Shown here: one piece after another, positions 20,533-25,332 of the stretch
Layout: the number at the start of each line of letters is the position of its first letter
Position numbering within the stretch: position 1 is the first letter of the stretch
Source of the DNA: Opitutales bacterium
GTDB taxonomy: Bacteria; Verrucomicrobiota; Verrucomicrobiia; Opitutales; PNEW01
DNA: 64,000 nt
NCBI GenBank assembly: GCA_965197745.1
Contig: CBDANS010000007.1
Location: 320,001-384,000, forward strand
Direction of reading: 5' to 3'
Position numbers and translations under genes: made by a program
Notes under the pieces: model-generated
Told to the model about the DNA's origin: nothing
The model's input: only the letters and a program-made list of their open reading frames with translations
Databases searched by the model: none

Positions 20533-21906
20533 ATGAAAGCAAAAACCGCTGAAGGATCGAAAACGACTGAGCCATCATCACTGGCGATAAGGGGTGGAGA
20601 AACAGCAGTCAAATCAGATTCTGGGGATAATTTTACCTGGCCAATTATGACACGCGAGGATGAGGAAGCGGCTTTGGATGTTATCAGACGCGGAGCAATG
20701 TCCGAAATCGATGTCACGATAAAATTTGAAGAGGAATTTGCTCGCTGGCAGGGCTGCACTTACGCGTTGGGCTATAACAACGGTACCGGTGCGATCCAGG
20801 CGGCTATGTTCGCCATAAAAATTGGTGTCGGTGATGAAATTATATGCCCAAGCCTCAATTTTTGGGCTTCCGTTATCCAGTGTTACTCCCTAGGCGCCAC
20901 ACCGGTGTTTGCAGAAGTCGATCCCGATACGCTTTGTCTTGATCCCAGTGACATAGAACATCGCATAACCGGTAATACCAAGGCGATTGTCGTAAATCAC
21001 AATTACGGGCACCCGGCTGATATGGATGCTATCATGGATATTGCTAACCGTGGAAATCTCAAGGTTCTCGAAGATGTCTCCCACGCGCATGGGGCACTGC
21101 TTAAAGGTAGAAAAGTGGGATCCTTTGGTCACGTCGCAGCAGCTTCCATGATGAGTAAAAAATCATTAGCCACCGGCGAAGCTGGAATACTATGGACTGA
21201 AGATAGAGAGATTTATGATCGAGCTATAGCCTGGGGCCACTACAATCTTTATTCCCCTAATATCGAGACAGATTATTTAAGAAGCAATTTTGGAATTCCT
21301 CTAGGGGGTATTAAAGGACGAACGCACCAGGTGAGCGCGGCGATGGGAAGAGTGCAATTAAAACACTACGATCAGCGAACCGCGGAGATCCAAAAGGCGA
21401 TTAATTATTTCTGGGATTTACTCGAAGGGGTCCCGGGAATTAAGCCCCACCGCATCTCCAGGGATTCTGGTTGCACTATGGGGGGGTGGTACTGGCCAAG
21501 GGGACATTACCGCTCTGAAGATTTAGAGGGACTTTCTATATCAGCTTTTGCGGATGCCGTTAAAGCTGAAGGCAGTCTATGCGATCCGGGTTGCAATTTG
21601 CCTCTCCACCTCCACCCGGTTTTCAGTGAAGCAGATATTTATGGGCACGGAAAACCCACGCGGAATGCCCATACTACTCGAGAGATTTACCAACCCTGGG
21701 GAAGCCTTCCGGTAAGTGAAGGAATCGGGGAAAGGGTTTTTGGTGTGCCTCGATTTAATTTTTATAAAACAGACTTTATTGAAGAACACGCGGCGGCCTA
21801 CCGCAAGGTGGCAGAAAATTATCGTGATTTACTCACCGATGATAAGGGAAACCCCGGTTATCTCACCCGTTGGGATATTCCAAATCCTAAAGTCTGGTCC
21901 GCTTAA
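20533..21906 (+). CDS. DegT/DnrJ/EryC1/StrS family PLP aminotransferase
   Basis: NNGTGAI, VGDEII, EDVSHAHG, SKKSLATGEAG. Confidence 0.9.
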   Translation: MKAKTAEGSKTTEPSSLAIRGGETAVKSDSGDNFTWPIMTREDEEAALDVIRRGAMSEIDVTIKFEEEFARWQGCTYALGYNNGTGAIQAAMFAIKIGVGDEIICPSLNFWASVIQCYSLGATPVFAEVDPDTLCLDPSDIEHRITGNTKAIVVNHNYGHPADMDAIMDIANRGNLKVLEDVSHAHGALLKGRKVGSFGHVAAASMMSKKSLATGEAGILWTEDREIYDRAIAWGHYNLYSPNIETDYLRSNFGIPLGGIKGRTHQVSAAMGRVQLKHYDQRTAEIQKAINYFWDLLEGVPGIKPHRISRDSGCTMGGWYWPRGHYRSEDLEGLSISAFADAVKAEGSLCDPGCNLPLHLHPVFSEADIYGHGKPTRNAHTTREIYQPWGSLPVSEGIGERVFGVPRFNFYKTDFIEEHAAAYRKVAENYRDLLTDDKGNPGYLTRWDIPNPKVWSA

Positions 21907-21973
21907 GCCCGGTTCCTGTTTAAGATAAGCCCCTAGATCTTTTTAAGATCAAACCTAGGGAGCCCGGAATTTT

Positions 21974-22000
21974 TGAACGTTTTAACCCCTTTTCCGTCTA
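21974..22000 (+). promoter_or_regulatory. Candidate ECF-sigma promoter, copy 1
   Basis: TGAAC-N16-CGTCTA. Confidence 0.5.
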
Positions 22001-22006
22001 TACATT

Positions 22007-22197
22007 GTAACCGTAGAAATTCTTAAAAAATTTGTAATTAAAACGATATAGAGTCCAAGACAGTTCATCACTATTCCAGATATATATTCACTCATTTTTA
22101 TGTTTTCCTCCTGAAAAGGAGTTTTGGGGTAACAGACGTAATTGGATGATAAGACGGGCAGCTTAGGGGTAGGCTGCCCGTTTTCTTTGTTTTTTTT
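22007..22197 (+). ncRNA. Candidate small RNA, copy 1 (5' end approximate)
   Basis: No ORF; CTCCT-GAAA-AGGAG hairpin, TTTTGGGGTAAC motif, terminal 15-bp stem with GGGG loop and T-tract; paralogous to copy 2. Confidence 0.55.
22151..22197 (+). terminator. Rho-independent terminator
   Basis: AAGACGGGCAGCTTA-GGGG-TAGGCTGCCCGTTTT followed by a T-rich tail. Confidence 0.75.
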
Positions 22198-22323
22198 AAT
22201 GTGCCCGTTGCTTTTTAGGGTTTGGACTTAACCTCTGTTTTACTAAATTTTTACAATTAAATAAGTGTTTCTTATGGCACCTGTAGCACTGATAGTATTG
22301 TATCTGATAAGGGTTAAATAACT

Positions 22324-22350
22324 TGAACGTAATCCGACTTAGATAATCTA
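22324..22350 (+). promoter_or_regulatory. Candidate ECF-sigma promoter, copy 2
   Basis: TGAAC-N16-AATCTA, same spacing and TGAACGT heptamer as copy 1. Confidence 0.4.
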
Positions 22351-22356
22351 TTAGTT

Positions 22357-22470
22357 TTGAGTCTATTCACATATCTTTCTCCCTCAGGGGAGTTTTTTGG
22401 GTAACAAAAAAGAATAGTGAAGTAGAAAATAAGCGGCGGGCAGCTTAGGGGTAGGCTGCCCGCCTTATTT
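22357..22470 (+). ncRNA. Candidate small RNA, copy 2 (5' end approximate)
   Basis: CTCCC-TCAG-GGGAG hairpin, TTTTTTGGGTAAC, GGCGGGCAGCTTA-GGGG-TAGGCTGCCCGCC then TTATTT. Confidence 0.55.
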
Positions 22471-22782
22471 GATACCGATATAACCGGTATCGATGGACAA
22501 ACCGGGAGATTCTGTGGCGTGGGTTAAATTCCCTTATTGGATCAAGTTGCTGGTGGATAATAGCTTGAGCCCATAAGACACCAACCGTTAGGGGACCGGT
22601 GGCGCTAAATCGAAGGGGATTTAGATAAAGAGAAGTCGTGACATTATTTTTATTTGCCTCTTCGTCTTCGTCAAAGATGAGTCTATGACAACTCTTGGTA
22701 TACATTTTTTAGGACGTAGAGGCAGACCCGTCTTCGCCAGTAGTCTACGACGTGGCAAGCGAAGACGAAGAGTTAATGTCAA

Positions 22783-25332
22783 TTATTCCTCCTCACGCAG
22801 GATGATTAAAGGTGGATGACTGGCAATACCGCGACTGTTGAAGAGCCCGGTAAGGAGTGTCAGCAGAGAGACGGTAATCACGGCTACCGGTAAACTTATC
22901 CAAACGACATCATAGGGAATTTTAAAAACAAAACGAGCGAGGGCCCAGGTGGCAATAAGAGACAGGACTGAACCTGCAATGCCGGACAGGGTGCCAAGCA
23001 GGAGATATTCAATTGTAATGATTCCACGAATAAGTCCGCTCGATGCACCTAAAGTCCGCAGCAGGACACTTTCACGAACGCGCTGGTAACGACTGGTTAT
23101 AATTGCCCCCGCCAACACCACTAATCCTGTGGCTATGGTAAAGGTTGCTATGAAGCGGATGACAAAAGCGACTCGATTCAGAATTGAAGTGACGGTTTCA
23201 ATTACCAGTGACAAGTCAATAGCTGAGACATTAGGAAATGTGGTAACTATTACTTCCTGTAAGCTGGCAGTAGCAATACGATTCGGCACCTTAGTGACGA
23301 TAGCGTAAAATGTTGGCGCTTCTTCTAATATACTGGTGGGGAAAACCACGTAAAAATTAGTCCGCATTTTCTGCCAATCCACTTCCCGTATACTCTCTAT
23401 CCGGGTCTCAATAGGGATTCCTTGCACGTCAAAGAGAATATTGTCACCCCGTTTTACTTCCAGTGACTTGGCAATACTTTGTTCGATGGATACCGGTATT
23501 GGTATTCTATCGTCCCAGTCTCCAATCAGCTTACCTTCGGTGATTTTTTCTGTGTCAATAAGATGGTTGCGGTAGGTAGAGCGGTATTCCCTATTTAAAG
23601 CCCAGCTTTCTGTTTTCGACTGCGGATCTGATTTTATTTCCGGAACTGAGCGGCCATTGATTTTAACGAGGCGCATAGTCACGATAGGCACCGTTTCGAT
23701 AATCGTATAACCCGCTTTTTCGATTATGGAAGTAACGCCTTTAATTTGATCGGGCTGTATGTCAAAGAGTACCATGTTTGGTTGGTCTCCGGCGTCTGAG
23801 AGCGCGACTTGCCGCAGTAACATTCCCTGGCAAAGATAGAGTGTGTAAATGAGAAATGCTCCCATCCCAAGGGTAACGACAAGAAATACGGTCCGATTAT
23901 TGGGGCGATATAGGTTAGAGAGACCCTGCCTCCAGATATAGGGCCACGTTTTAGGGAAATAGCGACGCATTATCCAGCGCAGACCTACGGCGAGTGCACT
24001 CAGGAGAAATAAACTGCCGGCTATTCCACCCGCGAAACCCAGGGCGTAACGGAGTTCGCTCGTTTGGGAAAAGCAGAATCCCAGGGTAATAAATGCGATG
24101 ATAGATGAAATTATCCAAATCCAGGGATCACGTCTTAAGAGGTGAGCGTTTTCGAAAGCCACACGCAAGGCATGGAGGGGAGTAATCCTGCGTACCGATA
24201 ATAGAGGGATGAAGGCAAAGAGCAGAGATATGAGCAATCCGAATGCGACGCTGAAAAACACACTCCACAAAGATATGAATACATCTACTTCGAATGGAAG
24301 AAATGAGCGAAGAACCCAAGGGAGGAAAAACTGCACGGTCACCCCAAGCACAGCGCCGAGTGCCGACCCGATAAATCCTACAACAATGATCTGTATAAGA
24401 TAGACGCCGAAAGCCTGACTTATTTTACAGCCCAGACATCGTAACACGGCAACGGTGTTTAGTTTCTCCTGCAAATAAATTTGAACCGCGCCCGCGACAC
24501 CCATGCCACCGAGTAAAAGCGCGACGAAACCGACTAGATTGAGAAAGTCATAGAGGTTGTCCATAACCTCACCAATGTTTCGTTTGCGCTTTTCTACCGT
24601 ATCATAGCCCAGGCGTTCTTCAGCAAAGATTCCTTTATCTGCTTTTTCTAAAATTGCGGTATCGATCTCTTGAGGAAGTTTAAAATAGATTTTATATCTG
24701 GCTATACTTCCCGTTTTTATAAGATCCGAGGCATCGAGCCACTTTTTGGAGAAAAAGATACGCGGGGCATAAATACCGGCTACACCGTTTTCACCGGAAA
24801 TGCGTTGCAGACCACCGACAATTTCAAATTCTAACCCTCCCAGAATTAACGAGTCACCGGGATGCACCCGGTAATGGGTCATCAGGCTTTTTTCTACAAG
24901 GGCTATAGGTCTATTCGGGGTAAGGAAATCTATAGCATTCGGTTCGGTTTCAATCTCACCGTAAAAAGGAAATGTTCCCTCTAATGCCCTGGCTTGTATT
25001 AAACGCGTTTTTCCCTGCCGGGGAAAATAAGCCATGGTTCGAAATCGGACTTCACGCGATTGTTCTCCTCCCAGAGAGGAAAAATATGATTCCGCCTTAT
25101 CCGAAAATGGACGTCTTCCAGAAATGGCTAAATCGGCGCCTAAAAGACTGCGTGAATGGAGTTCAATTGCCACTTCGAGATTATGCCGAAACGAGCTTAT
25201 TGCTACTAAAGCACCGATCCCGAAAACAATACAGAAAGTAAAGAGAAGTAATTTACGGCGATGGCCCTGACTGTCTCTCCAGGCCATGATCACCATCCAT
25301 CTCAATTCGTGGGCAGGGATTTTTATTCTCAT
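22783..25332 (-). CDS. ybbP: FtsX-like ABC transporter permease (YbbP-type)
   Basis: LLGADL, FPFYG, AVLRCLG, LFDIQPDQ, LNREYRSTY, LRTLGAS; synteny with ybbA/tesA. Confidence 0.85.
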   Translation of the reverse strand: MRIKIPAHELRWMVIMAWRDSQGHRRKLLLFTFCIVFGIGALVAISSFRHNLEVAIELHSRSLLGADLAISGRRPFSDKAESYFSSLGGEQSREVRFRTMAYFPRQGKTRLIQARALEGTFPFYGEIETEPNAIDFLTPNRPIALVEKSLMTHYRVHPGDSLILGGLEFEIVGGLQRISGENGVAGIYAPRIFFSKKWLDASDLIKTGSIARYKIYFKLPQEIDTAILEKADKGIFAEERLGYDTVEKRKRNIGEVMDNLYDFLNLVGFVALLLGGMGVAGAVQIYLQEKLNTVAVLRCLGCKISQAFGVYLIQIIVVGFIGSALGAVLGVTVQFFLPWVLRSFLPFEVDVFISLWSVFFSVAFGLLISLLFAFIPLLSVRRITPLHALRVAFENAHLLRRDPWIWIISSIIAFITLGFCFSQTSELRYALGFAGGIAGSLFLLSALAVGLRWIMRRYFPKTWPYIWRQGLSNLYRPNNRTVFLVVTLGMGAFLIYTLYLCQGMLLRQVALSDAGDQPNMVLFDIQPDQIKGVTSIIEKAGYTIIETVPIVTMRLVKINGRSVPEIKSDPQSKTESWALNREYRSTYRNHLIDTEKITEGKLIGDWDDRIPIPVSIEQSIAKSLEVKRGDNILFDVQGIPIETRIESIREVDWQKMRTNFYVVFPTSILEEAPTFYAIVTKVPNRIATASLQEVIVTTFPNVSAIDLSLVIETVTSILNRVAFVIRFIATFTIATGLVVLAGAIITSRYQRVRESVLLRTLGASSGLIRGIITIEYLLLGTLSGIAGSVLSLIATWALARFVFKIPYDVVWISLPVAVITVSLLTLLTGLFNSRGIASHPPLIILREEE

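Follow-up and report, generated by a model that had tools for sequence, protein, structure and literature searches.

The present analysis shows that the gene-free gap at positions 21907-22782 (875 bases) of the window, i.e., of the whole 64,000-nucleotide stretch of Opitutales DNA analyzed here, carries on its + strand two paralogous copies of a structured RNA, the helices of which covary strongly and which recurs in most of the sampled genomes of the order. That this is a real family of structured small RNAs (sRNAs) can be stated with high confidence. The explanation that best accounts for the data as a whole, which we consider on balance probable, is that the two units are separate genes encoding sibling trans-acting sRNAs of an Opitutales-wide family. 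The kind of element is well known, namely sibling trans-acting sRNAs with stress-sigma promoters; what is new is the family, its order-wide spread, its doubled invariant motif, and its mixture of promoter classes.

The family represents a well-defined and structurally supported sRNA candidate in the Verrucomicrobiota, in which the functional motif is exactly conserved and the promoters seem to fall into three or more sigma classes. Should it be confirmed, the family would offer a first handle on Hfq-independent riboregulation in the phylum and a natural example of a single RNA output placed under different stress and nutrient signals. For annotation, the covariance model described below can be applied as it stands.

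Locus and Anatomy of the Two Units

The features of the locus are collected in Table 1. The original prediction had described two units with the same order of parts, and this observation is correct in every detail, as seen from the parts being in place, from the blocks returned by the repeat finder, and from the terminator scan. In both units, TGAACGT...TCTA (21974-22000 and 22324-22350) has 18 nt between GAAC and TCTA, TATTCAC follows at 22085-22091 (unit 1) and 22364-22370 (unit 2), and GGGTA occurs twice. The U-run and GGGUAAC of unit 2 occupy 22393-22405. An identical 26-mer is found at 22155-22180 and 22437-22462, the base of the terminal stem being GAC/GUU in unit 1 and GGC/GCC in unit 2. 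Between the 5′ hairpins of the two units, the proposed compensatory change is indeed present as a double change from U-A to C-G. The repeat finder identifies the same three blocks as common to both units, with unrelated DNA in between, which agrees with the claim that motifs and structure are kept and the linkers are not. Both terminal stems are picked up by the terminator scan, and this on the + strand only (5 terminator-like sites against 1.3 expected). Inside 21974-22444 there are no ORFs of 40 aa or more, as had also been proposed; an 86-aa minus-strand ORF (22445-22705), which has no Pfam match, touches the end of this stretch.

Table 1. Features of the Gap and Its Neighbors, with Positions in the Window
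Feature	Positions	Strand	Support or remark
DegT/DnrJ/EryC1-type aminotransferase gene	20533-21906	+	upstream neighbor of the gap
Unit 1 promoter-like motif TTGAAC-N16-CGTCTAT (ECF type)	21973-22001	+	sequence; TTTTGAAC and GTCTAT invariant in three-genome alignment A4
Stretch between unit 1 motif and core	22002-22100	+	kept in G001, missing in G003
Unit 1 conserved RNA core	22101-22190	+	covariance model R1, 65.0 bits; fold z-score -3.58
Unit 1 5′ hairpin CUCCU-GAAA-AGGAG	22108-22121	+	sequence, fold; helices 1-2 of A3 covary
Unit 1 U-run and GGGGUAAC, first G-rich motif	22122-22133	+	GGGTA invariant in A1; largely unpaired in fold
Unit 1 terminator (stem 22153-22165/22170-22182, UUAGGGGUAG at 22163-22172, U-rich tail)	22153-22197	+	terminator scan, covariation, fold
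Sigma-70-like site TTAACC-N18-TACAAT between the units	22228-22257	+	consensus scan; TACAAT in G001, not in G003
Unit 2 promoter-like motif TTGAAC-N16-AATCTAT (ECF type)	22323-22351	+	CTTGAAC and ATCTAT invariant in alignment A5
UCUAUUCAC (includes TATTCAC), 5′ arm of predicted helix with 22417-22426	22362-22370	+	minimum-free-energy fold
Unit 2 conserved RNA core	22372-22472	+	R1 match, 79.7 bits; fold z-score -4.81
Unit 2 5′ hairpin CUCCC-UCAG-GGGAG	22379-22392	+	sequence, covariation, fold
U6-GGGUAAC-A6, first G-rich motif atop a predicted weak U/A-stemmed hairpin	22393-22411	+	sequence and fold
Unit 2 terminator (stem 22435-22447/22452-22464, UUAGGGGUAG at 22445-22454, tail UUAUUU)	22435-22470	+	terminator scan, covariation, fold
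FtsX/MacB-type permease gene	22783-25332	-	downstream neighbor, convergent

In the predicted folds, the TATTCAC of unit 2 is an arm of a helix, and that of unit 1 has no such partner. Both arms of this helix (22362-22370/22417-22426) are unchanged in the G001 and G003 genomes, so that it offers no test by covariation.

It may be mentioned here that nested inverted repeats are present within 22640-22782, just past the 3′ end of the minus-strand FtsX/MacB gene, including a perfect 13-nt pair (22658-22670/22760-22772) and a 12-nt pair with 92% complementarity (22655-22666/22713-22724). They may be the terminator of that gene or another structured element; the Rfam matches in this part are at chance level only.

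Structure, Covariation, and Strand

Both helices of the RNA covary strongly. In alignment A3, which comprises the 84 matches of covariance model R1 with E-values of 1e-7 or lower and is fitted to the model in a way that favors structure, 95.9% of the pair cells are standard-paired, compared to 79.4% in shuffles, and both sides are changed at 16 of the 19 pairs. When the partners were slid by 1-3 columns as a control, the paired fraction was 38-55.5%. In the model-free alignment A1 (98 copies aligned with MAFFT), from which R1 was built, the three stem positions per side that had been left free in the search pattern are paired in 97-98 of the 98 sequences. The two units can hence be described, as in the original prediction, as paralogous structured RNA genes with covarying hairpins. 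In addition, their folds beat those of their own shuffles, as seen from the z-scores in Table 1.

In RNAs that span 38% to 62% G+C across the order, the 10-nt loop region UUAGGGGUAG and the unpaired (U)GGGGUAA show no or almost no variation. The three loop-proximal "pairs" are constant or almost constant in A3 and should, given the near-invariance of the loop region, rather be taken as conserved sequence. The RNA thus presents GGGGUA twice, once in the U-run with GGG(G)UAAC and once in the terminator loop UUAGGGGUAG.

The assignment to the + strand, proposed earlier on the basis of G-U pairs and the T-tail, is firmly supported. The sense matches of R1 score 45-100 bits and the antisense matches at most 31 bits, U-G pairs occur at several positions of A3, and the U-rich tails are on the + strand; together these fix the strand.

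Each unit displays the attributes of a sibling trans-acting sRNA: a promoter-like motif and a terminator of its own, no ORF, a covarying structure, a conserved unpaired motif, and, across the order, a variable gene neighborhood. Three members (L165:1501-1616, L168:1501-1610, and L014:1498-1603) are structural variants. Two of the variants have an additional hairpin inserted in the linker; in L014, the first G-rich motif forms a hairpin loop of its own, resembling UUAGGGGUAG.

Copy Number and Spread in the Opitutales

When up to three mismatches are allowed, the 26-mer occurs twice in the 4,451,628-base genome and its reversed control not at all. The R1 model, most sequences of which come from other genomes, gives sense-strand matches at these two places and nowhere else in the genome, and it still scores the window units with 65.0 (unit 1) and 79.7 bits (unit 2). 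With only two copies in 4.45 Mb, flanked by the DegT and FtsX/MacB genes, the units are not a dispersed mobile repeat, a possibility that had been raised against the sRNA reading.

A nucleotide search of 40 relatives and the own genome gave matches in 25 of the 41, distributed over many families of the order. The terminal stem-loop pattern matched at least 117 stretches in a collection of species-representative genomes, and the matches listed carry the names Opitutus, Opitutaceae, Opitutales, Opitutia, Puniceicoccaceae, related genera, and Verrucomicrobia, as well as one "bacterium". The search of related genomes with a covariance model, suggested as a check in the original prediction, gave a clear picture. 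Of 151 genomes sampled across the phylum, R1 matched 27, namely the own genome and all 26 others of the same order, and none of the 124 genomes from other orders; the seeds of R1 were picked for a fixed loop sequence, so distant relatives with a different loop may escape it. In a sample of the order, 104 of 151 genomes have the RNA (90 of the 129 with at least 90% completeness), with 1-6 copies per matched genome. The families of the order in which R1 has no match mostly have genomes of 0.8-1.3 Mb; one further family has genomes of 3.6-4.4 Mb (0/6).

The family is absent from Rfam, consistent with the original prediction, in which it had not been recognized as a known one. No Rfam 15 model, those of MicA, RybB, and MicL being among the ones scanned, reached its gathering score in the 64-kb window. 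In E-value mode over 21850-22850, no E-value was below 0.89, and the best match reached 22.7 bits where the gathering score is 90. Among ten family loci in other genomes, Rfam returned one unrelated tRNA and nothing else. The full-text literature searches, to the extent that the articles were accessible to them, returned no paper on this RNA or motif and no study of sRNA regulators in the Verrucomicrobiota.

Promoter Motifs and Candidate Sigma Factors

Most likely, both genes would be read from ECF-sigma-type promoters of the form TTGAAC-N16-(C/A)(G/A)TCTAT, and the RNAs would then measure ~185 nt in the case of unit 1 and ~115 nt in that of unit 2, in line with the lengths originally estimated. 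The motif is conserved in close relatives and is similar to one found upstream of an ECF gene, which lends support to the promoter form originally assigned to the units. In the alignments with the two closest genomes (A4 and A5), neither TTGAAC nor (C/A)(G/A)TCTAT varies in front of the two units, while the spacers do. In G003, the motif of unit 1 is located ~25 nt from the hairpin; the window and G001 have ~85 extra bases here, which places the motif ~100 nt away from the core. If this motif is the promoter, 22002-22100 would be a 5′ extension of the unit 1 RNA. The sigma-70-like site at 22228-22257 could be a second promoter for unit 2.

The own genome contains 10 sigma-70-family genes, 8 of which were treated as ECF-type, seven being short frames of 162-229 aa and one lying within a 710-aa frame. 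A comparable upstream motif is present at only one of these eight, the gene G000:C7:1771640-1772176 (Pfam Sigma70_r2 and r4), which is the candidate for the sigma factor that would read the sRNA genes. The motif in its upstream gap, GGGAAC-N19-TCTTA, is positioned 61 nt before the called start codon and ~20 nt before the ATG at L172:341, and it is kept as GGGAAC-N19-TCT(T/A)A in the orthologues of G001 and G002. Its gap is 19 nt, compared to 18 in the sRNA units.

A spacer likeness, AATCCRACT, shared by unit 2 and the upstream region of the ECF gene occurs twice in the genome. We give it no weight, since it was noticed only after the fact and has no counterpart in G001 or G002. A scan for the same promoter upstream of other genes had also been suggested as a check: TGAAC-N16-[CA][GA]TCTA has 11 hits genome-wide, where ~8-9 are estimated by chance, and at such a level no regulon can be derived from the pattern. 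When the two promoter 32-mers were compared with the genome by ungapped identity, only the queries themselves came up. The one-base gap difference, the chance-level pattern, the unconserved spacer likeness, and the presence of the sigma-70-like site make the link to the ECF factor suggestive and not a proof; we nevertheless consider it fairly probable that the copies in the window are ECF-dependent. The envelope-stress control proposed in the original prediction amounts to an analogy.

Two side observations on the region of the candidate ECF gene are worth recording. The surroundings of its -35 box (L172:285-300) read GGAGTTTTGGGGAAC, which is near-identical to the GGAGUUUUGGGGUAAC of the sRNA in the same sense; the same site reads AGTTTTACGGGAAC in G001 and G002. 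The place directly downstream of the gene, in which an anti-sigma gene might be expected, is taken at L172:980-2770 (G000:C7:1772279-1774069) by genes for an IS1595-type transposase and a P63C-domain protein.

To view the promoters across the family, 161 distinct upstream regions from 148 loci were collected from 168 pattern-defined copies, duplicates and copies with less than 90 nt upstream being dropped. GGAAC occurs in 52 of the 161, as compared to 9 of the reverse complements and 10.6 in shuffles, and 50 of its 54 occurrences fall between -50 and -31 relative to the hairpin. TTGAC is found in 46 regions at -60 to -41, and TGGC(A/C) in 35 at -40 to -21. By class patterns that were written after inspection of the sequences, 61 of the 161 regions are ECF-like, with the motif at a fixed distance upstream, 13 are sigma-54-like (TGGCA(C/T)-N5-NTG(C/T)), 21 are sigma-70-like, and 72 have none of these; the corresponding numbers in the reverse-complement controls are 0 ECF-like, 0 sigma-54-like, and 6 sigma-70-like. 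In one family of the order with regular tandem pairs, a sigma-54-like motif precedes the upstream copy and a TTGCA-type -35 the downstream one, from which it seems that homologous RNAs are wired to different sigma factors.

Targets and Mode of Action

We tentatively favor a mode of action in which the RNA pairs with other RNAs through GGGGUA, a choice guided by the fact that base pairing is the commonest mechanism for such anatomy. The RNA would act without Hfq, its G/U-rich motifs pairing with C/A-rich (UACCCC-type) sites in mRNAs. Searches of the own genome, at 92.28% completeness, found neither Hfq (PF17209), for which the control genomes give matches, nor CsrA (PF02599).

The target searches returned no mRNA signal. 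Over -150..+45 of 4,466 crudely called gene starts in the own genome, the contiguous complements to UUUUGGGGUAAC and to the loop are no stronger than those of six shuffled seeds each. For TACCCC and related words, no peak connected with the start codon is seen in the own genome. A small bump of TACCCC at -100..-81 was discarded, as it consists of unrelated sequences and an IS-like repeat. Identical or near-identical sequences are found upstream of four short ORFs (G000:C5:59138, C7:618919, C7:24473, and C7:981144), which are probably copies of an insertion sequence. The duplex energies of both units give a top 20 of predicted genes that share no theme and include no outer-membrane proteins. 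Three Amidohydro_2 (PF04909) genes (G000:C7:171723-172415, C6:1185435-1186343, and C7:1217506-1218510) are among the 12 best duplexes, probably by chance, because their sites differ in position and one of them falls within the coding sequence. Porin_O_P and Porin_4 were not found in the own genome; the one OprB-type gene that was found has no UACCCC-type complementary site in its leader. In 101 genomes of the order, the 12-mer GTTACCCCAAAA occurs 56 times, versus ~76 by hand count for the reversed control, and 17 of the 32 sites in the loci inspected are, by reading, the sRNA genes themselves. Target prediction from a single genome is at noise level here.

This absence of a target signal is among the points that speak for a protein-titrating sponge or decoy, in which the two GGGGUA motifs would be the paired sites of a dimeric RNA-binding protein and the promoter inputs would set the amount of protein sequestered. 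The motif is shown twice and both copies are invariant across RNAs of 38%-62% G+C, the loop is conserved as sequence, its proximal "pairs" hardly varying, and the first motif is also placed in a hairpin loop in unit 2 and L014. However, the motif is devoid of the GGA core of CsrA sites and no CsrA gene was found, each RNA has two sites where known sponges have many, and neither a candidate protein nor an order-wide neighbor gene points to a partner. We consider titration, the main alternative to base pairing, unlikely, if worth keeping in mind. Somewhat more doubtful is a broader picture, in which the RNA would be half of an Opitutales-specific post-transcriptional hub operating without Hfq or CsrA: the twin GGGGUA motifs would capture an RNA-binding protein or one conserved RNA partner, and paralogues with ECF, sigma-54, and sigma-70 promoters would feed a single output.

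Comparison with Known Systems

MicA, RybB, and MicL are sigma-E-dependent sRNAs of Escherichia coli and Salmonella. The present units are similar to them in being short stand-alone RNAs with a promoter-like motif of ECF form, a conserved single-stranded seed, and an intrinsic terminator. The spacing of the ECF-type motif is also alike, being GAAC-N18-TCTA in the window and GGAAC-N18-TCnnA in many members. They differ in that there is no sequence or model match, no Hfq, and no outer-membrane protein target was found; moreover, the seed is here G-rich and present twice, and other members have sigma-54-like or sigma-70-like motifs.

Sibling sets of sRNAs are represented by Qrr1-5 of Vibrio, OmrA/B, and PrrF1/2, and the Qrr genes have sigma-54 promoters. 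Common to these sets and the present family are the several paralogues (1-6 here), often in tandem, and the combination of identical functional motifs with divergent linkers; some Opitutales members also carry TGGCAC-N5-NTG(C/T), similar to the sigma-54 promoters of Qrr. In contrast to the Qrr sets, the paralogues here differ in promoter class, and neither homology nor Hfq was found.

CsrB/RsmZ-type RNAs sequester CsrA/RsmA by means of many GGA motifs, which are the binding sites of CsrA/RsmE. The repeated short purine-rich motif, exposed once in a hairpin loop and once in unpaired sequence, is reminiscent of these RNAs, but there are two motifs only, which read GGGGUA and not A(N)GGA, with no CsrA gene found and no model match. 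The G/U-rich R1 region of the enterobacterial GcvB pairs with C/A-rich sites upstream of start codons. The U-run and GGGGUAAC would be comparable if they pair with C/A-rich sites so located, although no homology, no Hfq, and no enrichment of such sites were detected.

Gene Neighborhoods across the Order

The genes next to the RNA are conserved only within families of the order, and no order-wide neighbor that would hint at function was found. The family of the window has the DegT and FtsX neighbors, another (12 loci) has a divergent dciA, and in yet another a GCV_T-like gene with a DAHP synthase gene, or else PhoH-PIN, is found. Of 44 loci, 26 have a downstream ORF that runs in the same direction as the RNA, and 18, among them the window, have a convergent one; such mixed orientation is more in keeping with independent genes than with a leader.

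We have also considered that the RNA could be a cis-acting leader or attenuator, i.e., the 5′ part of a downstream transcript with the terminator as a regulated stop. The co-oriented ORFs are often 46-200 nt away and include, in particular families, those for DAHP synthase, PhoH-PIN, and ribosomal protein S1. However, these functions are unrelated, the downstream gene is convergent in the window and the 17 other loci, the copies come in tandem twos or threes with a terminator each, and no alternative anti-terminator pairing is conserved, such that a leader is very improbable. The least probable reading of all, that the units are repeat elements or shared terminator modules devoid of RNA function (duplicated intergenic DNA or mobile element ends), would explain the identical terminal 26-mer, and a terminator alone could persist as a bidirectional stop between convergent genes, but it fits poorly with the mere two copies in the genome, the retention of the RNA in 104/151 genomes of the order at family-specific loci, the covarying second hairpin with an invariant unpaired motif upstream of the terminator, the promoter-like motifs at fixed distances, and the lack of a transposase flanking the units.

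Separate sRNA genes remain the preferred reading, and some arrangements in other genomes may be described in this connection. In one family of the order (L155, L161-L164, and L166-L168), two or three tandem members are located beside a divergent dciA, the place of which is taken in L164 by a PAPS-reductase gene. In these arrays, the upstream copy has TTGGCAC-N5-NTGTT, which is sigma-54-like, and the downstream copy has the TTGCA-type -35. In the related single-copy loci L157-L160, the RNA is followed by the gene for ribosomal protein S1.
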